Below are positions 4,701 through 55,753 of a stretch of DNA of 64,000 bases, in pieces. Each line of letters starts with the position of its first letter. Position 1 is the stretch's first letter. The stretch lies in the IMG/VR virus record IMGVR_UViG_2671180984_000014, one strand, 5' to 3'. Made by a program: the position numbers and the translations under genes. Below the pieces are notes generated by a model that saw only the letters and a program-made list of their open reading frames with translations, was not told where the DNA came from and did not search any database. Origin of the DNA: a virus. Its lineage: Duplodnaviria; Heunggongvirae; Uroviricota; Caudoviricetes.

Positions 4701-4831
4701 GCGCGCCAAACATCAGAGAGCTTTATCATGACAGTGGCTTCAGAGTGGAACCTCTTTTTGCCAGACGTTCTGTGTCTTGTAAGGGGGACACTCGAGGTGT
4801 AGCTCATGACGTTTTGGGTATATTGCTCTAA
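1790..4831 (+). CDS. dmt: bifunctional DNA methyltransferase (C5-cytosine MTase fused to Dam-family N6-adenine MTase), intein-containing precursor
   Basis: 1013-aa uninterrupted frame; C5-MTase motif I (SVCSGIEAA), split motif IV (GGTP / CQAFSIAG), motif VI (VWENVPG), VIII (QRRRRVF), X ([13 protein letters not shown]); C-terminal ~270 aa with FKWAGGK and FCDPPYEP of Dam-class MTases. Confidence 0.85.
2021..3043 (+). mobile_element. intein with LAGLIDADG homing-endonuclease domain, in frame inside C5-MTase motif IV
   Basis: 341 codons starting with Cys (CFTAGHMVL), block B TxxH (RTTNDHPF), two LAGLIDADG-like blocks ([21 protein letters not shown]), terminal VVHN followed by +1 Cys; removal restores [12 protein letters not shown]. 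Confidence 0.8.
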
Positions 4832-4849
4832 TAAATTTATTAGTGTAAT
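4822..4849. promoter_or_regulatory. C1 operator (perfect match) plus overlapping inverted degenerate copy
   Basis: ATTGCTCTAATAAATTT at 4822-4838 overlapping the dmt stop codon; inverted partial copy AAATTTATTAGTGTAAT at 4833-4849. Confidence 0.6.
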
Positions 4850-34904: not shown

Positions 34905-34921
34905 TTTGCTCTAATAAATTG
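34905..34921 (+). promoter_or_regulatory. C1 operator-like site
   Basis: TTTGCTCTAATAAATTG, 15/17 match. Confidence 0.5.
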
Positions 34922-35262
34922 TGTTTTTTAGCTACCGATGTTACATTGAACCTGACCTCTTGCGCCTTGAGGCATTTTCGGTTTATGCTTATCAGGCACC
35001 TCATTAAAACGGGTGCCGGGATTGGCCTCCCGCTTAAGTCTAAGGCGATACAGACGCCGCTCGCGTCTTTTTTTGTATCGGCGTACACGCACACCTCTAC
35101 AATGGTGGGCTGTATGGGGCTACCTTCGGGTAGGCTGGTTACCTTGGACGCCAGTAAGGCCAACTCCGTACAGTCCACCGCCAGCAAGATTGGTCTCTTC
35201 TGCGGTGGTTACATACCAACGTCTAAGGAGGCTGCCAATATGGCTACTATCCCTACCCCAAC

Positions 35263-36575
35263 TCATCCTGAATTTATCTGGCGCTTTTACTCCTGCCAAA
35301 AACGTCACTATCACTTCGTTATTGCACCAACAGAAGATGAGGCCCGCTCTCAGCTTCCTGACGCCCCATGTATTTTCTCTGCCCGTTTTTCCACTGATTC
35401 ACGCAATTCTCTCAGTTACTGGTGCCTCCCTGTTAACGCTTCTGCTCAGGAGGGACTATGAGAACGTCATTAGTCACCCGTGAAGAGATGATCGAGGCAA
35501 TTGAACAGCACACTGCCTGTATCAGTACCAGGGATATACCAGGCGTTATTGCCAACTACTTCATGATCACCAAACAACTTTACCGGAGAAAGGACAAGAA
35601 CGCGGTTCACCGTATCCTGTTGTCTGATATCCGCGAATACCTGCTCGAACAGGGTCATCTGAATTACGCAACCGTCGCAGCCGAAGCACGCAAGGAGGCA
35701 CACAGAATGAAAGCAACTAACGTTAAATCAGAAAAAATTCATGCACCTTCAGTTCAGGAATCGGAGCTGGTGGTTGTTCAGAATCAGTCTGATGAAATTC
35801 CCGTTCTGGAATGGCAGGGAGTGCGTGTAGTGACAACCGAGACTCTTGCTAGAGGGTATGGGACAGAAACAATCCGTATTCGCCAAAATCATCATGAGAA
35901 CAAAGTACGCTTTGTTGAAGGGAAGCACTTTTTCAAAGTTGAAGGAGAATCATTGCGCGAGTTGAAGCACAGAGTAGCTTTAAACTACTCTGTAAAAATT
36001 GCTCGCAATGTTCGCTCACTCCCCTCTGGACAGAACGCGGCGCAGCCCGCCACGCTAAAATGCTCGAAACCGATCAGGCATGGGCATTCTTTGAAAAACT
36101 GGAAGACAGCTACTTCCGACAAAAAGAACAGCAACCGATCGCAATCCCCCAGACGCTTCCTGAAGCCCTACGCCTGGCTGCCGAACTGGCTGAACAAAAG
36201 CAACTTCTGGAACAGAAAGCCCACCAGCTAAATCAGCAGCTGGTGGCCGCCGCTCCTAAAGTCGATTTTGCCGACCGGGTATCAGTAGCTAAAGGGATCC
36301 TGATTGGGAATTTTGCAAAGGTTGTTGGACTTAAGCAAAACGCGCTGTTTGTCTGGTTACGGGAGAACGGCATCCTGATAGCGTCCGGTGGACGTAAAAA
36401 TGTGCCGTTCCAGCAGTACATCAACGCGGGGTATTTCACGGTGAAAGAAGTGGTGCTGGATGATGAAGATGGCTACCAGATACGGTTGACGCCTCAATTA
36501 ACGGGTAAAGGCCAGCAGTGGTTGACGCGTAAACTGCTCGATGCTGGCTTGTTAAAACCGGTGGCAGCTGAATAA
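35263..36575 (+). repeat. inverted-repeat copy A of icd-ant module (partner 53821-55142)
   Basis: about 1.3 kb near-identical to reverse complement of 53821-55142; identity begins inside icd coding sequence and ends at ant stop codon. Confidence 0.8.
35458..36575 (+). pseudogene. antirepressor ant, frameshifted copy
   Basis: same protein as intact 372-aa copy at 53821-54939 but one base missing (CACTCCCCTCTGG here vs CACTCACCCTCTGG there) splits it into 257- and 171-aa frames; no C1 operator or icd start upstream. Confidence 0.7.
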
Positions 36576-41377: not shown

Positions 41378-42046
41378 GTGGCTTTTCTTTTTTGTAGGGG
41401 CGCTATGGATAAGAAAATATGCGTTGTTTCAATGAGCGTCGGCAAACCGGCGTCAATGACTGCTGCATGGATCAACAATGAGCTGATCATGGCTGAGCGG
41501 ACCAGCTACCCTGAACGCCGCCGCGATATGGAACTCCAGCTGCTGCGCGAATTGCGAGAAAAAGAGGAAAAGGGTTTTATCGTGCTGGTGGAAGAGGAAA
41601 ACAGCTTTATTACCGGTCGAGTTGGCCAGCGTGTAAGGTTGCGTGATCCCTTCATGAACGGCAGACCGGTACTGATTGAAGCAATGCAGATTTACAAGGA
41701 ATTGGAACGCCAGAAAGCGATCAAGTTACCGCGCAAGGAATCCGGCAAATACATCCTTCACCAAAGCATCTTCGATTCCGAACACGATAAAAAAGGCGAT
41801 GAATTTTTCAACATCAACTGGAGCGAAATAACGACAGAACATGTTCTGACGTTACTATGTTGCTTTGCGACGGAATACAACAACGTTGCCAGCGCCGACT
41901 ACATCAGGGCAATGGCTGGAGAAGTTGAGGCCCGCCAGGAGCCATCGTTACTAAGCCCTCTGATTAACATAATTCGCGGAACCCAAACGCTGGCACAAAA
42001 ACGGGTGCCGAAAGGGGAATTAACAGGAAAAGGAAATTATCTATAA
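41378..42046 (+). CDS. hypothetical protein (mat position)
   Basis: 222-aa ORF downstream of ref; start uncertain (alt ATG 41405). Confidence 0.4.
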   Translation: MAFLFCRGAMDKKICVVSMSVGKPASMTAAWINNELIMAERTSYPERRRDMELQLLRELREKEEKGFIVLVEEENSFITGRVGQRVRLRDPFMNGRPVLIEAMQIYKELERQKAIKLPRKESGKYILHQSIFDSEHDKKGDEFFNINWSEITTEHVLTLLCCFATEYNNVASADYIRAMAGEVEARQEPSLLSPLINIIRGTQTLAQKRVPKGELTGKGNYL

Positions 42047-42102
42047 ACGTCAATGCATTAGGGTATACTTCTCCATAGAACTATAAGTAAATGGAGTAAG
42101 TA

Positions 42103-43410
42103 ATGAGCGAATATGTTGAGTTAGCATACGCTGCCGCTACAAGCAGGCTTTGTCTATTTACCGGGACTGGCTTTTCAAAGGCAGTCTCGAACGGCGAAGC
42201 ACCAACGTGGAAAGAACTATTAAAAAAAGTTTGCAGCAAAGTTCACAACGCCAAACAGTTGGAAGACACGTTATTCCCTGATGATAAACCACCAGCACTG
42301 AGTCTTGAAGAAGCCGCACAGATACTATCTTTGAAGCTCAACATTGAAGGCAAGTCGATTTATGATGAAATTGTTGACATCATATCTCCAATACAACTTG
42401 GCGAAGATATATCAAATATAAAGGATTTTTTTCAAAAAAGAACATTTCGTGTCATTACAACGAATTATGACAAGTTAGCTGAATACTTAACTGGAGATGA
42501 GGAGGTTCAGTCTATTACCCCAGGCTTACCTATTCCTAAATATCCCTCCAAAGTTAAAATATATCATGTCCATGGTTCTATTGACTCTCCACAAAACATG
42601 ATTGTTACATCAGAAGACTATTTTAGGTTTATAAACTCCGACACTTATTTCTCTCGAAAACTTAGCACGATGCTGCATGAAAATACAGTTGCGATATTAG
42701 GCTATTCTTTAAGCGACACGAACCTAAAAGCAATTATAAATGATTACAAAATATTCTCGAAAGGTAACGCTCTGTGCTCTAATATATTTTTCATCTCTCG
42801 CAGTGAAGTAAGTCAAGATATGAAGGATTATTATTTTTATTGTTTTGGAATACGAGTAATTGACAACACCGAAATAGACTCTTTCTTTAAGAGATTGAGC
42901 ATTAACATAATGTTAATTGAAGGCGTCATAGCAAGAGCCAGACAAAGTATAAAAAGAGTTTTATCAGGCACTTTCAACTATAAGGATGAATACCTTAGAT
43001 TAGAAGATTCATTCTATCAAATAACCTCCTCGATTATATCTGAGGGTTTCGACTGGAATGACGGACAAGTAGTTGATTTTTTCAAGAGAATAATAAAACA
43101 AAAAAGAGATTTAACAAGAGAGAGTGGTGCTTGGGAGCAATACGAGCAGCTTGCAAAATGGCTTATATATTTCGGCAGCCTTTTAGAAATTGGTGGAACT
43201 AAGTATGAAAATGAATATTTAGACGCCGTTGAATACTCAATGTCCAACATGAGCAAAGAAATGAGATTAGGTTATTCGTGGCATGCTTATAGAGCTTGGG
43301 AAACAAGATGGTCCACAATCATTGCTTCAAATCGATTAATAATAAAAAAACGCATCGAAGAAATTGGCGTACTGGAGGATGCTAATTCTATAGTAAAAGA
43401 TATAGTGTAA
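42103..43410 (+). CDS. SIR2-like domain protein with unknown C-terminal domain (candidate defence/abortive-infection effector)
   Basis: 435 aa; N-terminal ordered motifs LFTGTGFSKA, RVITTNYDKLAE, IYHVHGS characteristic of SIR2/sirtuin NAD-binding fold; AT-rich; GGAG RBS; occupies the P1 res-mod slot. Confidence 0.75.
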   Translation: MSEYVELAYAAATSRLCLFTGTGFSKAVSNGEAPTWKELLKKVCSKVHNAKQLEDTLFPDDKPPALSLEEAAQILSLKLNIEGKSIYDEIVDIISPIQLGEDISNIKDFFQKRTFRVITTNYDKLAEYLTGDEEVQSITPGLPIPKYPSKVKIYHVHGSIDSPQNMIVTSEDYFRFINSDTYFSRKLSTMLHENTVAILGYSLSDTNLKAIINDYKIFSKGNALCSNIFFISRSEVSQDMKDYYFYCFGIRVIDNTEIDSFFKRLSINIMLIEGVIARARQSIKRVLSGTFNYKDEYLRLEDSFYQITSSIISEGFDWNDGQVVDFFKRIIKQKRDLTRESGAWEQYEQLAKWLIYFGSLLEIGGTKYENEYLDAVEYSMSNMSKEMRLGYSWHAYRAWETRWSTIIASNRLIIKKRIEEIGVLEDANSIVKDIV

Positions 43411-43461
43411 TTGAAGAGCGGCAAAAATTTAACGGGCAGCTACAACTGCCCGATATATAAA

Positions 43462-43710
43462 TCAATCCGCATTCAGGAGCAATGCGTTATCTATGATGAT
43501 CTGTTCCCATTCTTCGAATGCCCGGTCGCGGACGCCCTGGGGAACGCTGTTAGTTTTGAAATCGACGACCGTCCGCCATTTCCCGTCCGGACGGTACATG
43601 CGCAGAGCTTTACTTCCCCCTTCCCTGCGCACCTCAACGTTATGCTTGTCAGCAAACTCTTGTAATGCTCGTAGCGTCCCATGCTTTACTGTGTAGTATC
43701 GCTTTTTCAA
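43462..43710 (-). CDS. lxc: Lxc/Bof C1 co-repressor
   Basis: 82-aa basic ORF at conserved position upstream of darB operon end. Confidence 0.65.
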   Translation of the reverse strand: MKKRYYTVKHGTLRALQEFADKHNVEVRREGGSKALRMYRPDGKWRTVVDFKTNSVPQGVRDRAFEEWEQIIIDNALLLNAD

Positions 43711-44147
43711 GTTTTCTCTCCAGCCTGTGCCAAGGCTTCAACTTCCAAATCGTAAGACTCAAACTCATAGTCCTGGTCGTCAACTTCTTCAGGCACTGGC
43801 AGTAAATGCCAGGCTGAGTATATCTGACCATTATCAAAACGCTCCTGGCTGTAGAGCGTCGCGGCTATGAGTGTTAGCGCCGGGCGGTCATAACGGTAAA
43901 TTTTGCGAACGTCACGGTCAACGAGACGACCGAAATTACCATAACCGCGCTCCAGTAATAATTTTTTAATTTCCGGCCAGTATGGGCCATAGCTGCGGTA
44001 CAGGCGGGGATTTTTCAGTAATCGCCCACGTAGCCCTGACAGGAAGAAATCAACGTATTCGTCTTCTGTCTTTCCTAACAACGCCGTACGCAGTACCGCC
44101 TCAAGATATGTTTTATTCGGTTTTATTGTATCAGATAGTGTGGCCAT
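43707..44147 (-). CDS. hypothetical protein upstream of lxc (ulx position)
   Basis: 146-aa ORF overlapping lxc start. Confidence 0.4.
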   Translation of the reverse strand: MATLSDTIKPNKTYLEAVLRTALLGKTEDEYVDFFLSGLRGRLLKNPRLYRSYGPYWPEIKKLLLERGYGNFGRLVDRDVRKIYRYDRPALTLIAATLYSQERFDNGQIYSAWHLLPVPEEVDDQDYEFESYDLEVEALAQAGEKT

Positions 44148-44180
44148 ATTATGCGACGCCCGGCGAACCGGGCGCTCCTG

Positions 44181-47100
44181 TTATGCGTATTGTTGGATGA
44201 CGGCCAGAACGTCCGCCACGTTGTGTTTTGTCTCGATAATCCACCAGTTACCCGGGAAATCGCTGTTCTTCGCCTTCGCTGGCAGCCAGCGAGCGCCGAA
44301 TTTCGCCTTGATTGCGTCTTTCGCACGGAAAAGAACGCCTTTCATGCCTGAGGCTTCCTGAAGCCCAAATACCTCGCCAGCGGCGAATTTTGGTGCGTAC
44401 ATCATCTTCAGGTCGGCGGTGGATACGCGATAATTCAGACCAAGAGACTGAGCTATGCTGGTGGCATCACCCTGTATTGATGATAACTCTTCTTGTTTCT
44501 CGTTTCTGGCGGCAATTTCTTCCTCCGTGATGTTGCCAAGGGCCAGGTTTATCCGATCAGCGTCGGCCTGTTTCTCTTCATCGGTGCGCCCGGCAAGAAC
44601 CGTGTTAATTCTCTGCAATATCTCCACATGATTCTTGCGCATGCTGAGCAATTCCGGCGTAACCTCGTTAAGATCCACCAGCCCAAGGATGGCAAGGTCG
44701 GAAAACATTGATACCAGGTTGTAGGTCATGCGATAGCTGAGTTGACCATAGGCTGATGGCAACTTCACCGCATCCATTTGATAGGCATCCATAAATTTAG
44801 AGCCGTCGTTTACGACATCCGCAATTGCAGGTGTGATTTTCCCTGTGGTGGCGGCCTCCCTGATTGCTGTTACCCACGATTGAGTCAGTGCGGCGACTGC
44901 ATGATTCAGATTGGCTTCCCGTTCTGCTGCGATACGCGCGCTTGCTGCGTCCATTGCCTGCTTGATCTCGGCTTTATTGCTGTAAATGCCAATGGTGCCA
45001 AACTGTGCTGTGGTGATCTCATAATCTGACGCCCGGAACTCATGGGTACCGAAAATGGCATTGGTGACCTCAAGTTCAGAATCCCCGTTACGAGTAGCCC
45101 CCTGGCTTGTTTTCTCCGGCATTCTGGCGATCGCATCCGCTATTTTCTCCTGAATTGCTTCAGGGGATAGCGTATCTCCATATGACGCGATTACATCGCC
45201 ATAATTGGAGCCAAACAGTTCAGTCAGGAATACTTCTGCCAAACGGACCTGGCGGTTATTCCCTTCAGACATCATACCAAGCACCCATTTTGCAATTGAC
45301 GACTTCAGCGCGCCGTCACGGCGATCCGGGTAAACCGCATGCTTCAGTGGGTCCGTATAGGTACCAACAAAATCAATGCTATAGCCTGACTCTGTAGTCT
45401 GAACGCCGTATGAGTCAGTGATTTTGATCATGCCGCGCTGCTGGAAACGGTAGAAATCGTCACAGGAAATGATGTCGTTAATCCCGGCGATGGAGACGCC
45501 ACCACTGATTTTCTGCATAACAGCATCTTCATCGGGAGTTACATCAACCTGTTTATCCAGCGTCTTCACATCCCAGTTACCCGATTTGGTACCTTTGAAG
45601 GTAAAGATAATCTCCACGTCTGCGCGCTGGCTGTCGAAGTCCAGCGACTTAATGCGAACGATATCACCGGCACAATCGTAGTATTGGCCTACACGCCATG
45701 AGCGATCGCCGATAATAAGGAACTCACTCGCATGGTTAACCAGGTCAGGATCAACATCCAGAATGCCTTTATTTATTGCATCCTCCACCAGCGGGCGAAG
45801 GCGTTTGATATCCGTCGCGGCCTTCTGAGTACGGTTCAATAATTTCTCATAGCGGGAGATGGCTTGAGAGATATTAGCCTTGCGCTGAATGGCGCTTTTC
45901 AACGACGCGCGATACTGTGCTAACAACGTACGGTCTGTGTGATGGACGCTACCCCAGCGGGCTTTCCAGTCTGCGTTATCAGCTGCTTTGGCCATTACCG
46001 CCTGTTTGAATTTGGCGACGTCGGCGGTGGTCTTTTCGAGTTCCGCTTTTCTTCGCTCTAATTCAGCGGTAAGCACCTCCACATCCTCACCAGCTGCGTG
46101 CTGCGCCTTGATGTAGTTCTGAAGGTCGATAGTAGCCTGTTCTTTCTGGCGAGCGCGTTGCGCGGCTTTCGCCTTATCCATTTGAACCTGCATCATTGCC
46201 AGACGTTCGCCATCATCCTTAGCGGTATACATCTGCATTTCGATCATATCGTTGGCGTCGGCGTTCTCCATTTCTGACTTATCTGAACGGAGGATATCGG
46301 AGATCCAGCCTGCTTTACGCTTCAGCGTCTTCAGTCGGTATTCATCGAAAGAACCCTTGCCGCAGTAGTAGTGAACGCGAACGCTTGCACGGTTGGAACC
46401 AACTCGGGCACCGCGACCGTTACGCTGTGCGATACTGGCTGGTGTCCATGGCAACGTCAGATGATGGATGTCAGTCGTTCCTCGATGCAGGTTGATACCC
46501 ACCTCTGCCTTTTTGTTGCAGATGATGATCGGAGTCCGGCCCTCCTGGAAGTCGGCAGCAATCTTTTCCAGCCCGCCCAGCGACATTTCATTTTGCTGCG
46601 CGATATAGGCGTCATACAGAGCCATTTGCTCGTTGTATTTCGCTATCTGTGCATCTGTTGGTTCATCCGGTAGCTCTTTCGGCGGTTTAACCGCTTTCAG
46701 TTTCTTACCGGTTTTACCTGCCTCGGCAACCGTCTGAGCATTCAGTATCCCCACCTTTGAAGGTTCAAGGTTAAGAGCATTGCAGATAATGCGCTTGAGC
46801 TTCTGGTGCTGCGTTTTTTCATCGGTGAAGATGATTTGCTTACCTTCCGGGAAAAACTCCTTCAGCGTGGCAATCAGCTTCGCGTATTTGGGCGTAACGG
46901 GGTGAGTTACGGTCTGTTCGTCAATGCCAAACCTGGCCAGGCGCTTATTCACTTCCTGCTCGAACGCTTCCGGAACCTGCAACTGAATAAACTCGCCCTT
47001 ATCTATCAGGGAGTATTGCGATTGCTGCGTGATTGAATCATCACTGTCGTCGTCTTCGCTGGTGGCTTGTTTAGGCAAACTGTCCGCCAGCTGCTGCACC

Positions 47101-50100
47101 GCATCTGCGTACTCCGGCAGGAAACGATAGGTGATCCGGCGATAGTACAGGTCCATGTCAGTACATACGCGGTCCATATCCCTGATTATTGAGAAGATCG
47201 GACGGGCTTTCTCGTGCTCAATCACGCCGTCTTCATTGACCGAGGTCGTTACGCCATTGTTGGCTTTGGCCGCCGCTTCCGCCTGCTGACGCAATTCTTC
47301 ATACGCCGCCAGTTGTTCTTCAGTAAGTGGTGCATCCTGCTGGTGTTCGTCCAGCTCCGGGATCTCCACGGTATCCTTAACGTCTTCCGCCGTTTTAAGC
47401 GTTACCCAGCGATGGAATATACCGCGCAGCGCATCAAGGTTTTCAAAGCCCACCAGCGCCATTTTTTCTTCAACTTCACCGCTGATTTTCTGTACCGTTT
47501 CCAGCCTGGTCTTGCCGAAGAATTTAACGAAGTCATCAGGACCGTAGATCCCCATCTTCTGCCAGTATTCCTTCGGCAGAACATGAGAAAGCATGTTGTA
47601 TGCATCGATCGGGGTGTTAACGACTGGCGTTGCAGTCAGGAGAACCGGCCCGCGCCCGCCATTCTTTTTCATCAGGTACGCGTTTTTGATTGCCATATCC
47701 CGCGCCGATTGCGCCACCGCGCTGGTGGGCAGATAGGCCAGTTGTGACGCTTCGCGACCATTTTTATAGCTATTGCGGTAGTTGTGACCTTCGTCGGCGA
47801 TCACACTATCGAAGCCCATATCCTCAAAGTACGGATACTTCTCTGCTTTTTCGGTACCGGTATCTGAATACTCCGACAATACCCAGCGACGCGCCGCCTC
47901 TTTACGATGGGAGTCGGAATCCATTGCGCTGGCTACGCGCCCGGCGGCAACGAAGTCATAAAGCATGTCTTGTGCATGCTCATCTACGGTGTCATCACGT
48001 AGCGGAATGCGGGCGTATTGTTCTTTGGTAAACACGACTGCACGGTAATTTGAGTGCGGGATCGCGTTCATCCGCGCCGTGATAGTGGCTTCATCTGCCA
48101 GCTTAAGAGCATCGCGCATAACTGGAGTGCCATCAGTACCAAGAACAGGTTTACCGTTCTCATCGAGCACCGGCACCTGGCGAATCTGATCGCCATCCAT
48201 CAGCACATCAAGACCGACGAACAGGTAGTTACTGAATGCCTCTTCACTCAGGAACTCTTTTGCTTCGTAATACCAGTTTTCCAGCACTGCTTTAGGCACT
48301 ACATAAGCAGTACGGGTGGAGCGACCGTTCTCATAGTTGAACGCCTCAAGCGCCAGCGCGGTCGTGGTTTTACCCAGCCCGGTGCCGAAGCCCAGGATGC
48401 CGCGCCCATCTTCGGACAGTCGGCGCACCTCGCTATTCTGGTAATCAAATGGCTGGCGCTTACCGCTTAATCCCTTCAACCCAAGCGGATCGCCAGAGTG
48501 TTCATACGGGATATTGCTATTGAACACATCGTTGTATTTGGCAACCAGCTCATCGTAGCGATCGTGCGTCTTGATCCACTTATTGAACTGGTCCTCAAGC
48601 AGTGCCATCTGCTCGCGGTAGCCGTTCGCCGTCGCGCTATCTTTGCCACCGATACGCGCACCATTGAGATACTTTTCCAGCTGTGCCGGGAACCCGGTCG
48701 CGTTTTCACCTGATTTACGGTCCCACTCGTAGCGGATCTCGCCTGTTTCTTTATCCTTGCGCTGGACGACACCGTATCGGTGCCCGACGAACAGACCATC
48801 ACCACCGTGATAGGTGTCAGAAACCATTTCGTCGCCTTCCAGCTGCACTGACTGCACATAGCGCAGATCCGGATAGCCGTTTTCCTGCAAAAACTCCAGA
48901 ATGACGGAGCGGTCGAACCAACGGCTATTGAGCTTAAAGCGGATATTCTCTGCTGGCGTCTTGATGCGCTTCTCTTCGATCGCTGCCAGCTGATTAAGGA
49001 CGTTGTTCTTTACTGGACCGTCGGGGAGCGTGGCGAGGAATTCCTGTTTTGGAGCCACTATCTCGTTAATGTCGCCGCTGGTGGCGCGGGCGAACGGAAC
49101 AATCCCGCCATACGGTGAAACCGCAATGCCAGGGGTGCTGGCCAATAAATTAAGCAACTCATCATCACTGGCTGGCAGTTCGCCGGTAAACGCAAGGCGG
49201 AAATCATCGAGCTGGATTGGATCGCGAGTGAGATCACTGTAGAGATAACGCAGGGTGTCCTGATAGCTGGTGGAGTCATAACTGGCGCTGGAATCATGCG
49301 TAACCAGTTTTCCTGTCAGCTCGTCAGAAATAGTGCCATCCAGCTTAATTGCACCACGGAAAGCAAACCAGGCGCGCGCACCGCTCCCCGATAATTTCGC
49401 TATCGGACCGCGACCGGGGTTACCAAAACGGTCAATCTCTGCCTGCAAACGGGATACCAGAGAAAGGCGCTGCTGTTCGATTTGTTCAGCACTATGCCCG
49501 GCGGCCTTCATGTCCTGATATTCAATTAACATCCGGCCAATCATCGCCCCGCGATACAAGCGTTCACGGTATTTTTCAGGCTGGCTGTTAATCCAGTCCA
49601 CCAGCTGCACCATATCGTCGCTGATTGATGTGGTGTACTTATCGCGGACATTTGCCATCTGGGTAAATGTCATGCCGAGACGGCCTTCTGTTGTAGTCAG
49701 GTTACGCTGAAGAGCCTCCCAGCTATCCGCGCCATAACTGGCAGCATCGATCTTAAGTTCCTTCCCGGCATCAGCTTCAATCCAGCGACCACCAGCATAT
49801 TTTTGCCATACGCCATTAATCAGGCGCATTTCCCCTTCACCAACAACGTCTGCGGTCGGTGACGGTTCAGCCATATCGAGCAAAGACCAGTCGATACGGC
49901 TTTCGAAACGATGAATCAGCTTCGCTTTAAGAGCCTGGTTATCAATCTGACCGTCGGCACGAACCTCAATACGCCCCCGGAAGCCCTTTTCTTGGGTGCC
50001 ATGAACAAACCGGCGGCCATCCTTTTCAAACCACTTGCCAGAAATAAACGTTGGCCAAAGCACATTTGCTGATTCAAGAGTGCTTTCATCCACCAGGGGG

Positions 50101-50948
50101 ATTTTCTCAGCCATCTCTGCCGGATGTTTGCGCATCAGCACCACATCTACGACCGTACTGGTCCCGTTTGCGTCAAAAGTACCGGTAGGCAAGCGGTGGG
50201 CACCAAGAAATTCTGCTTTCCGTGATAGGCGCAGGCGTAACCGCTTCATGTTTGAACCTGAAACAATGGACGGCGGCACAATCACGCACATGAATCCGCC
50301 TGGCTTTATCTTGTCCAGCATGCGGAGCATGAAGTAAGAACCCATGTCCGTTTCTTCTGCGTAAGGCTTATCGATGTTGCGTGTGTTATCACGACCGCCG
50401 AACGGAACGTTACCCACAACATGGTCGAATGAATCGTTAGGTGTGCTTATAGCCAGCTGTTCGAACGGGGAAATCTGTACGCTGTCTTCCGGGTGTAACA
50501 ACTGGTTTATACGACCGGAAACACTGCTGATCTCAGTCGCAGTCATCACCGTACCAACCGGTTTTGTCTCATTAAAAACGCCGGTGCCCGCCGATGGTTC
50601 CAGAGTGTTACCTACGTCCGCGCCGTAGAGCTTCATGATCTCCCAGACACCTTCAGCGATCGGCTTTGGTGTGTAATATTCGGAGACGGACCCGCCAATG
50701 CCGCCTTCACCGGTGTACCCAGCCAGGATCTGGCGCTGTTCATCTGTCAGTGTCGCGCCGTCCACCAGTGAATTAAGCAAATCTATCGCCTTCTGATTCG
50801 CCTCCCGGCGCAGTCGGTCATAGCTTTTGCCTTCCACCTTTTCCACGCCGTATTTAATCGGCGCTCGGTGAGATGTTATTGCCCTAATGTATTTCAATAT
50901 TTCGCTGACACTTGAACAGCGAAACACCCCCATAGATAGCTTGTTCAT
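44181..50948 (-). CDS. darB: DarB antirestriction protein (methyltransferase-helicase)
   Basis: 2255-aa ORF; N-terminal N6-MTase-like NVPFGG motif, helicase motifs GTGLGKTTTA and VIADEGHNYRN; size equals P1 DarB. Confidence 0.9.
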   Translation of the reverse strand: MNKLSMGVFRCSSVSEILKYIRAITSHRAPIKYGVEKVEGKSYDRLRREANQKAIDLLNSLVDGATLTDEQRQILAGYTGEGGIGGSVSEYYTPKPIAEGVWEIMKLYGADVGNTLEPSAGTGVFNETKPVGTVMTATEISSVSGRINQLLHPEDSVQISPFEQLAISTPNDSFDHVVGNVPFGGRDNTRNIDKPYAEETDMGSYFMLRMLDKIKPGGFMCVIVPPSIVSGSNMKRLRLRLSRKAEFLGAHRLPTGTFDANGTSTVVDVVLMRKHPAEMAEKIPLVDESTLESANVLWPTFISGKWFEKDGRRFVHGTQEKGFRGRIEVRADGQIDNQALKAKLIHRFESRIDWSLLDMAEPSPTADVVGEGEMRLINGVWQKYAGGRWIEADAGKELKIDAASYGADSWEALQRNLTTTEGRLGMTFTQMANVRDKYTTSISDDMVQLVDWINSQPEKYRERLYRGAMIGRMLIEYQDMKAAGHSAEQIEQQRLSLVSRLQAEIDRFGNPGRGPIAKLSGSGARAWFAFRGAIKLDGTISDELTGKLVTHDSSASYDSTSYQDTLRYLYSDLTRDPIQLDDFRLAFTGELPASDDELLNLLASTPGIAVSPYGGIVPFARATSGDINEIVAPKQEFLATLPDGPVKNNVLNQLAAIEEKRIKTPAENIRFKLNSRWFDRSVILEFLQENGYPDLRYVQSVQLEGDEMVSDTYHGGDGLFVGHRYGVVQRKDKETGEIRYEWDRKSGENATGFPAQLEKYLNGARIGGKDSATANGYREQMALLEDQFNKWIKTHDRYDELVAKYNDVFNSNIPYEHSGDPLGLKGLSGKRQPFDYQNSEVRRLSEDGRGILGFGTGLGKTTTALALEAFNYENGRSTRTAYVVPKAVLENWYYEAKEFLSEEAFSNYLFVGLDVLMDGDQIRQVPVLDENGKPVLGTDGTPVMRDALKLADEATITARMNAIPHSNYRAVVFTKEQYARIPLRDDTVDEHAQDMLYDFVAAGRVASAMDSDSHRKEAARRWVLSEYSDTGTEKAEKYPYFEDMGFDSVIADEGHNYRNSYKNGREASQLAYLPTSAVAQSARDMAIKNAYLMKKNGGRGPVLLTATPVVNTPIDAYNMLSHVLPKEYWQKMGIYGPDDFVKFFGKTRLETVQKISGEVEEKMALVGFENLDALRGIFHRWVTLKTAEDVKDTVEIPELDEHQQDAPLTEEQLAAYEELRQQAEAAAKANNGVTTSVNEDGVIEHEKARPIFSIIRDMDRVCTDMDLYYRRITYRFLPEYADAVQQLADSLPKQATSEDDDSDDSITQQSQYSLIDKGEFIQLQVPEAFEQEVNKRLARFGIDEQTVTHPVTPKYAKLIATLKEFFPEGKQIIFTDEKTQHQKLKRIICNALNLEPSKVGILNAQTVAEAGKTGKKLKAVKPPKELPDEPTDAQIAKYNEQMALYDAYIAQQNEMSLGGLEKIAADFQEGRTPIIICNKKAEVGINLHRGTTDIHHLTLPWTPASIAQRNGRGARVGSNRASVRVHYYCGKGSFDEYRLKTLKRKAGWISDILRSDKSEMENADANDMIEMQMYTAKDDGERLAMMQVQMDKAKAAQRARQKEQATIDLQNYIKAQHAAGEDVEVLTAELERRKAELEKTTADVAKFKQAVMAKAADNADWKARWGSVHHTDRTLLAQYRASLKSAIQRKANISQAISRYEKLLNRTQKAATDIKRLRPLVEDAINKGILDVDPDLVNHASEFLIIGDRSWRVGQYYDCAGDIVRIKSLDFDSQRADVEIIFTFKGTKSGNWDVKTLDKQVDVTPDEDAVMQKISGGVSIAGINDIISCDDFYRFQQRGMIKITDSYGVQTTESGYSIDFVGTYTDPLKHAVYPDRRDGALKSSIAKWVLGMMSEGNNRQVRLAEVFLTELFGSNYGDVIASYGDTLSPEAIQEKIADAIARMPEKTSQGATRNGDSELEVTNAIFGTHEFRASDYEITTAQFGTIGIYSNKAEIKQAMDAASARIAAEREANLNHAVAALTQSWVTAIREAATTGKITPAIADVVNDGSKFMDAYQMDAVKLPSAYGQLSYRMTYNLVSMFSDLAILGLVDLNEVTPELLSMRKNHVEILQRINTVLAGRTDEEKQADADRINLALGNITEEEIAARNEKQEELSSIQGDATSIAQSLGLNYRVSTADLKMMYAPKFAAGEVFGLQEASGMKGVLFRAKDAIKAKFGARWLPAKAKNSDFPGNWWIIETKHNVADVLAVIQQYA

Positions 50949-53756: not shown

Positions 53757-53815
53757 AACCCCGGCGGCTGCCGGGGTATCTGAAATCACTGGCGGCCGAA
53801 AGGCCGCCTTTTTAA
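53757..53815. terminator. bidirectional terminator region (two hairpins)
   Basis: CCCCGGCGGCTGCCGGGG and GGCGGCCGAAAGGCCGCC-TTTTTAA between convergent pro and ant. Confidence 0.6.
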
Positions 53816-53820
53816 TTTAA

Positions 53821-54939
53821 TCACTCAGCCGCTACTGGTTTTAACAAACCAGCATCAAGTAGCTTGCGAGTTAACCACTGCTGGCCTTTACCCGTTAATT
53901 GGGGCGTCAGCCGTATCTGGTAACCATCTTCATCATCCAGCACCACTTCTTTCACCGTGAAATACCCGGCGTTGATGTATTGCTGGAACGGCACATTTTT
54001 ACGTCCACCGGACGCTATCAGGATGCCGTTCTCCCGTAACCAGGCAAACAACGCGTTTTGCTTAAGCCCAACAACCTTTGCAAAATTTCCAATCAGGATC
54101 CCCTTGGCCACTGATACCCGGTCGGCAAAATCGACCTTAGGAGCGGCGGCCACCAGCTGCTGATTTAGCTGGTGGGCTTTCTGTTCCAGAAGTTGCTTTT
54201 GTTCAGCCAGTTCGGCAGCCAGGCGCAGAGCTTCTGGAAGCGTCTGGGGGATTGCAACCGGTTGCTGTTCTTTTTGCCGGAAGTAGCTGTCTTCCAGTTT
54301 TTCAAAGAATGCCCATGCCTGATCGGTTTCGAGCATTTTAGCGTGGCGGGCTGCGCCGCGTTCTGTCCAGAGGGTGAGTGAGCGAACATTGCGAGCAATT
54401 TTTACAGAGTAGTTTAAAGCTACTCTGTGCTTCAACTCGCGCAATGATTCTCCTTCAACTTTGAAAAAGTGCTTCCCTTCAACAAAGCGTACTTTGTTCT
54501 CATGATGATTTTGGCGAATACGGATTGTTTCTGTCCCATACCCTCTCGCAAGAGTCTCGGTTGTCACTACACGCACTCCCTGCCATTCCAGAACGGGAAT
54601 TTCATCAGACTGATTCTGAACAACCACCAGCTCCGATTCCTGAACTGAAGGTGCATGAATTTTTTCTAATTTAACGTTATTTGCTTTCATTCTGTGTGCC
54701 TCCTTGCGTGCTTCGGCTGCGACGGTTGCGTAATTCAGATGACCCTGTTCGAGCAGGTATTCGCGGATATCAGACAACAGGATACGGTGAACCGCGTTCT
54801 TGTCCTTTCTCCGGTAAAGTTGTTTGGTGATCATGAAGTAGTTGGCAATAACGCCAGGTATATCCCTGGTGCTGATACAGATTGTGTGCTGTTCAATTGC
54901 CTCGATCATCTCTTCACGGGTGACTAATGACGTTCTCAT
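53821..54939 (-). CDS. ant: antirepressor Ant (immI), intact copy
   Basis: 372 aa; N-terminal ORF6N/Bro-like and C-terminal KilA-C/antirepressor-like segment (KVDFADRVSVAKGILIGNFAKVVGLKQN); preceded by icd and C1 operators. Confidence 0.75.
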   Translation of the reverse strand: MRTSLVTREEMIEAIEQHTICISTRDIPGVIANYFMITKQLYRRKDKNAVHRILLSDIREYLLEQGHLNYATVAAEARKEAHRMKANNVKLEKIHAPSVQESELVVVQNQSDEIPVLEWQGVRVVTTETLARGYGTETIRIRQNHHENKVRFVEGKHFFKVEGESLRELKHRVALNYSVKIARNVRSLTLWTERGAARHAKMLETDQAWAFFEKLEDSYFRQKEQQPVAIPQTLPEALRLAAELAEQKQLLEQKAHQLNQQLVAAAPKVDFADRVSVAKGILIGNFAKVVGLKQNALFAWLRENGILIASGGRKNVPFQQYINAGYFTVKEVVLDDEDGYQIRLTPQLTGKGQQWLTRKLLDAGLLKPVAAE

Positions 54940-55142
54940 AGTCCCTCCTGAGCAGAAGCGTTAACAGGGAGGCACCAGTAACTGAGAGAATTGCGTGAAT
55001 CAGTGGAAAAACGGGCAGAGAAAATACATGGGGCGTCAGGAAGCTGAGAGCGGGCCTCATCTTCTGTTGGTGCAATAACGAAGTGATAGTGGCGTTTCTG
55101 GCAGGAGTAAAAGCGCCAGATAAATTCAGGGCGTGCGCAAGG
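53821..55142 (-). repeat. inverted-repeat copy B of icd-ant module (partner 35263-36575)
   Basis: reverse complement near-identical to 35263-36575. Confidence 0.8.
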
Positions 55143-55157
55143 ATTGGCATTAACCAT
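54936..55157 (-). CDS. icd: Icd-like small protein, translationally coupled to ant
   Basis: 73-aa ORF whose stop overlaps ant start; lies between C1 operator pair and ant as in P1 immI. Confidence 0.5.
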   Translation of the reverse strand: MVNANPCARPEFIWRFYSCQKRHYHFVIAPTEDEARSQLPDAPCIFSARFSTDSRNSLSYWCLPVNASAQEGL

Positions 55158-55458
55158 AGTTACGGCCTCACAATCAGGTTTAACAACCTGCTACCCGCTG
55201 TCAAACAGGTGGCAGGACGTGACAGGGTTGACAGACTGGCGATTGTGAAACCAGCAGGCCGAAGCCTCCCCATCACGCCCCACCATAATTTGGGCGTAAC
55301 GCGGTTTAACGGACACAAAAATACCGCAATATCGGAAATCTGCGGTTGTCCGCACAATCATTCAGGCTGTCAAACCTGGTCGCAGAATTTGCTACGACGG
55401 CGGAACTATAAGCCTGAACGACGATGAGATCAATAGAGCCGTGTTCGATGGTAGGTTA

Positions 55459-55491
55459 TTTGCTCTAATAAATCAAATTTATTAGAGCAAT
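55459..55491. promoter_or_regulatory. inverted pair of C1 operators (immI operator)
   Basis: TTTGCTCTAATAAATCA (55459-55475) and perfect reverse-strand ATTGCTCTAATAAATTT (55475-55491). Confidence 0.65.
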
Positions 55492-55501
55492 AATGGTTAA
55501 A

Positions 55502-55753
55502 TCATCTTCGCCTGCGTGCCATATATTTGCGCACCGCGCGGCGTGGACAATCTGAAGCGGTTTCTTTCTGCTGCATCAATCTCGCAGCCATGCTCAAAAA
55601 AGTCAGGCACAGCCGAAGCCCGGCATACAATAGCGGTTCCAGTGGCCACGTCTCATTGAGCACATATACCGCCATGAAAATCGAGTCGAAAACTATCGCC
55701 GCCAGCGATAACTTCATTGTCGAAAGTCGGCGGAGCTGCCGGAGTTTATTCAT
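55502..55753 (-). CDS. small membrane protein downstream of lyz
   Basis: 83-aa ORF overlapping lyz stop; hydrophobic segments and Arg-rich tail. Confidence 0.3.
   Translation of the reverse strand: MNKLRQLRRLSTMKLSLAAIVFDSIFMAVYVLNETWPLEPLLYAGLRLCLTFLSMAARLMQQKETASDCPRRAVRKYMARRRR

Follow-up and report, generated by a model that had tools for sequence, protein, structure and literature searches.

The stretch of DNA analysed in this work (hereafter the window) comprises 64,000 nucleotides of the IMG/VR virus record IMGVR_UViG_2671180984_000014, and its source is a P1-like (Punavirus) phage-plasmid. Relative to P1, P7 and 17 further P1-like phage records, the window carries a 1.7-kb insert between pro and lydD (53778-55499, minus strand), and this insert holds an operon of the immI type, consisting of a C1 operator, a leader with the gene for a c4 antisense RNA, icd and the antirepressor gene ant. 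With a probability of roughly 0.7, we read this pro-lydD module as a third, accessory copy of the P1 immI operon that was inserted once, in the ancestor of a minority lineage, between the terminator of pro and the stop codon of lydD.

The P1 annotation was used to define the reference positions of a1, b1, c4, a2 and b2, and the corresponding features of the module are collected in Table 1. A C1 operator stands at the 5' end of the operon and is bivalent, as opposed to the monovalent Op51 of P1; across the whole window, 19 C1 operator matches with no more than three mismatches were found, versus 0.32 expected by chance. The promoter predicted within the leader aligns with the annotated P1c4/P51b promoter of P1, and the leader measures 317 nt from the operator to the ATG of icd. 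The upstream target segment matched the Rfam family c4-a1b1 (RF03163; 55359-55411(-), 56 bits, gathering score 46.7), and its pairing with c4 (7/7 at a1, 7/8 at b1) is the same as in P1. The Rfam family C4 RNA (RF01695) matched 55205-55290(-) over the full length of the model (1-87) at 68.4 bits (gathering score 45), and the c4 gene agrees with P1 c4 at 75 of 77 nt, both differences lying in b'. The fold of the leader gave z = -5.9 relative to shuffled controls (minimum free energy, MFE), and in the MFE fold b' occupies a hairpin loop and a' a single-stranded junction, like in the family consensus. Downstream, a' and b' are exact complements of the module's own a2 (7/7) and b2 (8/8).

Table 1. 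Features of the pro-lydD module and of the second immI-type module, with positions in the window.
Feature	Position	Strand	Description
Bivalent C1 operator	55459-55491		Perfect 17-mer ATTGCTCTAATAAATTT at 55475-55491(-) and inverted 14/17 copy at 55459-55475(+); tail-to-tail with 1 bp in common, 33-bp near-palindrome
P51b-like sigma-70 promoter (predicted)	55405-55433	-	TTGATC, 17-nt spacer, TATAGT; sole promoter-like match in the region
c4 target sites a1 / b1	a1 55367-55373; b1 55352-55359	-	a1 TTGACAG; b1 GATTGTGC; homologous to annotated P1 a1/b1
Leader hairpin with U-run, isrK-like	55314-55346	-	Between a1/b1 and c4; read from the sequence, present in the MFE fold
c4 antisense RNA	55208-55284	-	77 nt by homology to P1 c4; b' TCACAATC at 55241-55248; a' CTGTCAA at 55228-55234
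c4 target sites a2 / b2	a2 55198-55204; b2 55168-55175	-	a2 TTGACAG; b2 GATTGTGA, overlapping the icd Shine-Dalgarno GAGG (55166-55169)
icd	54936-55157	-	73 aa; 82% identical to P1 Icd; phrog_1426, E = 7e-47
ant (Ant1-like)	53821-54939	-	372 aa; ATG overlaps the icd TGA as ATGA
3' end of the insert	53758-53808		GC hairpin from the insert at 53791-53808, T-run on the plus strand; native bidirectional pro/lydE terminator hairpin at 53758-53777
Second immI-type module	34905-36575	+	Between pacB and c1: C1 operator 34905-34921, a1/b1, divergent c4 35104-35179, a2/b2, icd 35240-35461, ant

A sequence-only reading of the same DNA had proposed a P1 immI architecture with c4 encoded in the leader, citing a perfect C1 operator with an inverted degenerate copy, an untranslated leader of about 300 bp, a 73-aa icd-like open reading frame (ORF) and a 372-aa antirepressor whose start overlaps the icd stop. 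Each of these elements was recovered, and the two comparisons it had suggested for the leader, an alignment to P1 c4 and a search for complementarity between a'/b' and a2/b2, gave the close match and the exact pairing described above.

From the ATGA overlap of icd and ant, translational coupling of the two genes is predicted. An in-frame internal start of the Ant2 type (M84, 54688-54690), preceded by AAGGAGG, is conserved within ant. The Ant protein matched phrog_63 ("anti-repressor Ant", E = 5e-131), to which P1 Ant1 was also assigned, and Pfam placed ORF6N at residues 116-202 and KilAC at residues 260-361, together with a match to ANT (E = 1e-31). Identity to P1 Ant1 is 56% overall; the two proteins resemble each other over the first approximately 90 aa and are near-identical in the KilAC C-terminus, and the central third consists of ORF6N where P1 Ant1 has no Pfam match. 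Among orthologues at the pro-lydD site the pairwise ratio of nonsynonymous to synonymous substitution rates (dN/dS) of ant is 0.09-0.31, and ant and icd are intact in every pro-lydD copy examined; both genes are evidently under purifying selection there.

An Ant of ORF6N type might be aimed elsewhere than at C1, at the repressors of other resident prophages, or might itself act as a DNA-binding regulator, with the module then serving as a cross-induction or interference device under the control of c4 and C1. We consider this unlikely. The N-terminal 90 aa and the KilAC C-terminus are P1-Ant-like, with a near-identical C-terminal third, the internal Ant2 start is kept, both proteins fall into phrog_63, and expression is tied to the P1 circuit by C1 operator control; on the other side stand the occurrence of ORF6N in many antirepressors of lambdoid phages, short DNA matches of the module to Yersinia phages and to Shiga toxin (Stx)/lambdoid phages, and the fact that both accessory modules carry an ORF6N-type Ant, whereas the canonical module carries the P1/P7 type.

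Alignment to P1 placed the insert between the terminator hairpin of pro and the stop codon of lydD, where it stands in place of about 17 nt in P1 and where the 3' end of the P1 lydE-like frame is lost. The 19 phage records compared (including P1, P7, SJ46, RCS47, JL22 and phi456) match the flanks only, and the flanks are contiguous in them. The local order in P1 is prt, pro, convergent lydE and lydD, lyz and then ssb, and the P1 annotation places that phage's own immI between sim and kilA-repL. The sequence-only reading had located the module between pro and lyz, at a position that it suggested might be non-canonical, the two genes being described as adjacent in P1. The synteny comparison bore out the non-canonical position, as immI is absent from the pro-lydD site in all 19 records and P1 immI lies at sim/kilA-repL; the direct neighbour of the module is lydD, however, not lyz, and in P1 pro and lyz are separated by lydE and lydD. 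The pro-lydD module does not share the sim-kilA-repL placement of P1 immI, and we regard genomic position as a trait of the reference phage, not of the mechanism. By the insertion, the lydE-like frame (a putative antiholin of 71 aa in P1) is shortened to 50 aa (55497-55649(-)) and its original C-terminus is gone.

To sample c4 loci more widely, IMG/VR was scanned with a pattern in which the c4 scaffold was held invariant and the code positions were left free, yielding at least 120 loci. The pro-module-lydD arrangement was present at 5 of the 120 c4 loci among the matches listed, in 11 of 819 matching PLSDB plasmids (E. coli and E. albertii, 91-100% identity) and in 16 of 545 matching complete E. 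coli genomes (several of serotype O111:H8, one O103:H2, several bovine). All eight further copies that were read (five from IMG/VR, three from PLSDB) have an identical lydD-side junction and an identical 33-bp operator palindrome. This identity, seen across copies with differing c4 codes, indicates one ancestral insertion, in a minority lineage of P1-like phage-plasmids. Three b codes (ACAAUC, AUUCGU and ACAAGU) were found on that same junction, which argues that codes move between modules with their targets; at the pro-lydD site the code has evidently been exchanged at least twice, each time with all four targets.

The second immI-type module of the window lies between pacB and c1 (Table 1). 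Its c4 (Rfam C4 at 35098-35185(+), 75.9 bits; isrK, 60.8 bits) is built on a different scaffold and has its own matching targets, and a 1-nt deletion near 36022 interrupts its ant, which is intact in NZ_CP045829. That plasmid (from a human E. coli isolate, Australia) and NZ_CP114131 (pig, China) are the closest complete plasmids, and both match the window at 100% identity along 2.3 kb of the pro-lydD locus. Both also have icd-ant beside kilA-repL, both annotations list three icd/ant pairs, and Rfam C4 matched NZ_CP045829 exactly three times. With two C4 matches in the window and three in NZ_CP045829, the pro-lydD module is an additional copy, not a displaced one. The canonical sim-immI-kilA-repL region lies outside the 64-kb window and is therefore not directly readable in this genome, which leaves some room for a relocated primary immI, that is, for a sole operon that moved from sim/kilA to pro-lydD and is the only antirepressor switch. 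Such a move is nonetheless highly improbable in view of the pacB-c1 module within the window and of the two closest plasmids, which keep an intact canonical icd-ant with its own C4 RNA beside kilA-repL.

The icd-ant DNA of the two window modules (53821-55130 versus 35267-36571) is 96.5-96.9% identical. At the protein level, the window pro-lydD Ant shows 98% identity with its intact pacB-c1 counterpart in NZ_CP045829 and 84-90% with same-site Ants in other plasmids, and the c4 leaders of the two window modules are unrelated. Since icd-ant is closer between sites within a genome than to same-site relatives and the leaders are unrelated, this suggests within-genome gene conversion of icd-ant that spared the specificity region.

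The P1 code is composed of a' CUGUCAA and b' UCACUAAC, and that of P7 of a' CUGCUAA and b' UCACAAUC. The window module combines the a' of P1 with the b' of P7, and its targets follow suit, a1/a2 being of P1 type and b1/b2 of P7 type; judged by these nucleotides, it is a self-consistent P1/P7 hybrid and belongs to neither specificity class. The canonical module of the closest plasmids pairs the P7 a' with a third b', UCGUAAGU (GUAAGU), and has matching targets. Over the IMG/VR scan, at least 12 a'/b' combinations were found, drawn from at least seven b codes and at least two a codes. Among the matches listed, 11 of the 120 loci carry the same hybrid code as the window module, and 112 of the 120 show perfect complementarity between the code and each of the four targets; the eight exceptions comprise seven contig-end or unparsed loci and one real b2 mismatch. 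The latter (L047, IMGVR_UViG_2565956613_000015, canonical site, c4 at approximately 4760-4806) has b' AUUCGU with a matching b1 but a b2 of P1 type (GUUAGU); this module may be a recombinant in which ant is able to evade its own c4.

On 22 distinct representatives, c4 and a2/b2 were 100% paired, compared with 27-48% in slid controls, a figure that is partly circular as the representatives were picked among loci with matching targets, whereas the 112/120 figure is not. In the same set, 8 of 15 c4-to-a2/b2 pairs showed compensatory changes affecting both partners, and in none was a single partner altered. The leader hardly varies apart from the code nucleotides, and this concentration of variation in the recognition nucleotides suggests diversifying selection on them.

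It is improbable that the module is a neutral or decaying duplicate, a by-product of recombination between P1-like plasmids without a function of its own. Every pro-lydD copy examined has an uninterrupted ant and icd (ant dN/dS 0.2-0.3), the junction is common to plasmids of E. coli and E. albertii whose identity has fallen to 91-94%, and the c4 code has evidently been swapped at least twice, always together with its four targets. These observations stand against the broken pacB-c1 ant of the window and the fragmentary state of that module in NZ_CP114131, against the L047 b2 that no longer fits its c4, and against the high icd-ant identity of the two window modules, which is as expected from recent duplication or gene conversion.

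The mechanism of P1 immI, the interdependence of icd and ant, and processing by RNase P reportedly go back to Citron and Schuster (1990, 1992) and Heinrich et al. (1994). The c4/antirepressor mechanism of P1 is summarised in PMC8546580 and PMC8201110. Were the pro-lydD module to operate likewise, the P51b-like promoter would give rise to a leader transcript from which c4 would be cut out, and c4 would pair through a'/b' with a2/b2 and so occlude the icd ribosome-binding site. Because ant would need icd translation (ATGA coupling, polarity), no Ant would be made in the lysogen. Transcription into the module, read-through from lyz-lydD among it, would be further limited by C1 bound at the bivalent operator. 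In a newly infected cell that lacks the cognate c4, Icd and Ant1/Ant2 would be made and Ant would antagonise C1.

Duplex energies were predicted for the b loop only, as RNAduplex, applied to the short a' segment, found competing pairings within the target region and did not discriminate. Cognate b'-b2 pairs gave -11 to -14 kcal/mol, and non-cognate combinations of this module with the P1, canonical and pacB-c1 codes gave -3.4 to -5.5 kcal/mol; on the b2 of this module, the predicted value is -4.9 kcal/mol for P1 c4 and -3.4 kcal/mol for the c4 of the canonical module in this plasmid type. Co-resident c4 codes were distinct in 7/7 multi-c4 IMG/VR contigs among the matches listed. On the strength of these energies, of the distinct co-resident codes and of three modules with three codes, we speculate that the module provides an independent immunity channel. 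A prophage with the module would then silence incoming ant operons of the same code, and a superinfecting phage with the module would be held only by a resident that also supplies this c4.

Several points weigh against reading the module as a working accessory immI operon with a channel of its own. Processing of c4, repression and the binding of C1 by Ant are carried over from P1 by homology. The target of Ant could differ from C1, given a central ORF6N domain instead of the P1 type and 56% identity, and extra modules can decay, as the frameshifted ant of the pacB-c1 sister module illustrates. No sigma-70 promoter overlapping the 33-bp operator (the equivalent of P51a) passed the promoter scan, a weak TTGATT-17-TACCAT being visible by eye only, and the two halves of the operator overlap by 1 bp at 55459-55491 as against 6 bp at 4822-4849. 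As regards specificity, a P7-type c4 is predicted to match the b2 of this module perfectly (-11.7 kcal/mol); independence from P7-type immunity is therefore uncertain, since it would depend on two mismatches in a alone. Finally, random draws give distinct codes in 7/7 contigs 15% of the time (0.11 with the two plasmids added), so that orthogonality is not statistically established. The operator at 4822-4849 is another bivalent C1 operator of the window, in which a perfect 17-mer is joined to an inverted copy with two mismatches.

Compared with known systems, the pro-lydD module resembles P1 immI in the order and spacing of its elements (Op51, P51a/b, a1/b1, c4, a2/b2, icd, ant1/ant2), in a leader that is near-identical from P51b to icd, in identical a' and a1/a2, and in the retained ATGA coupling and nested Ant2 start. 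It differs from P1 immI in its position at pro-lydD, in the P7 dinucleotide swap in b', b1 and b2, in having no sim genes adjacent, and in that Op51 and P51a are replaced by the 33-bp bivalent operator without a clear overlapping promoter. With P7 immI it shares identical b' (UCACAAUC), b1 and b2 and a leader of 89.6% identity, but its a' and a1/a2 are of P1 type (UC, not CU), c4 has one further substitution, and position, operator and Ant type are different. The mat-proximal module of phage vB_EcoM-Ro157c2YLVW has the bivalent operator in common with it, and its leader is 92.9% identical. IsrK and other RNAs of the C4 clan (Rfam CL00128) are similar in combining an a1/b1 segment with a terminator-like hairpin, but the corresponding leader segment of the module scored 43 bits with isrK (Rfam RF01394), below the gathering score of 50, and the downstream gene is icd-ant. 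The terminator-like hairpin at 55314-55346(-), upstream of c4, could yield a short RNA carrying a1/b1.

Extra cassettes of the same kind have been described as an accessory ant between pacB and c1 in pTZ20_1P and RCS47 and as icd-ant1/2 homologues in RD-1 of pSvP1, in the res-mod region (Venturini et al. 2019, PMC6906374); a module at the first of these sites is also present in the window. That paper makes no mention of the pro-lydD site, nor of c4 genes, codes or matching targets in the extra modules. In the searchable literature, which lies outside subscription journals (e.g. Gilcrease & Casjens 2018 on phage D6), no mention was found of an immI module at pro-lydD, of c4 in extra modules, of hybrid or multiple codes per genome, or of stacking. 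Genes for c4 are missing from the current annotations of the plasmids examined here: for these public sequences, the PLSDB gene tables, from which RNA genes are left out, list none, and the Prokaryotic Genome Annotation Pipeline (PGAP) annotates icd and ant.

Heteroimmunity between P1 and P7 is the textbook antisense-RNA case of phage immunity specificity and is treated as two alleles of one locus. The module described here is a further immI operon, and its hybrid code, the multiplicity of modules and the covariation over 12 codes apparently extend that case in a way we did not find described. A larger natural system is suggested, with at least 12 recognition codes on one scaffold, compensated targets and several cassettes per genome. 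We put forward tentatively, at slightly less than even odds, that P1-like phage-plasmids stack two to four c4-icd-ant cassettes per genome (at sim/kilA, pro-lydD, pacB-c1 and mat-proximal sites), each with a distinct combinatorial a x b RNA "lock and key", in a superinfection arms race. Codes appear to move between sites by recombination, and within one genome the coding part can apparently become uniform without loss of the differences between codes. If stacking is true, each orthogonal module would widen the range of operons that a prophage silences and narrow the set of residents able to hold the phage at superinfection. If the codes are orthogonal, they could help explain coexistence or displacement among P1-like plasmids, many of which carry resistance or virulence genes, and would provide antisense-RNA/target pairs that are orthogonal and ready to use.

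One 97-kb contig (IMGVR_UViG_2703718869_000013; loci L126, L104, L056 and L021) bears four c4 genes on the P1 scaffold, each with a different code, and two of these codes differ solely in a' (AUGUAC with UC and AUGUAC with CU). Elsewhere in the window, 8.7 kb (42042-50805) are missing from the otherwise collinear NZ_CP045829. This stretch takes in a 435-aa ORF (42103-43410) with a SIR2_2 domain (Pfam, E = 2e-23), a possible defence gene at the res-mod hot spot, and a 2255-aa ORF on the minus strand (44181-50948) of the size of P1 darB; in NZ_CP114131, no darB-sized gene is annotated between prt and ref. Outside the region covered by the window, both closest relatives carry cnf3 (cytotoxic necrotizing factor 3) beside insertion sequence (IS) elements, at 12895-15933 of L004 (NZ_CP045829) and at 688-3726 of L131 (NZ_CP114131).

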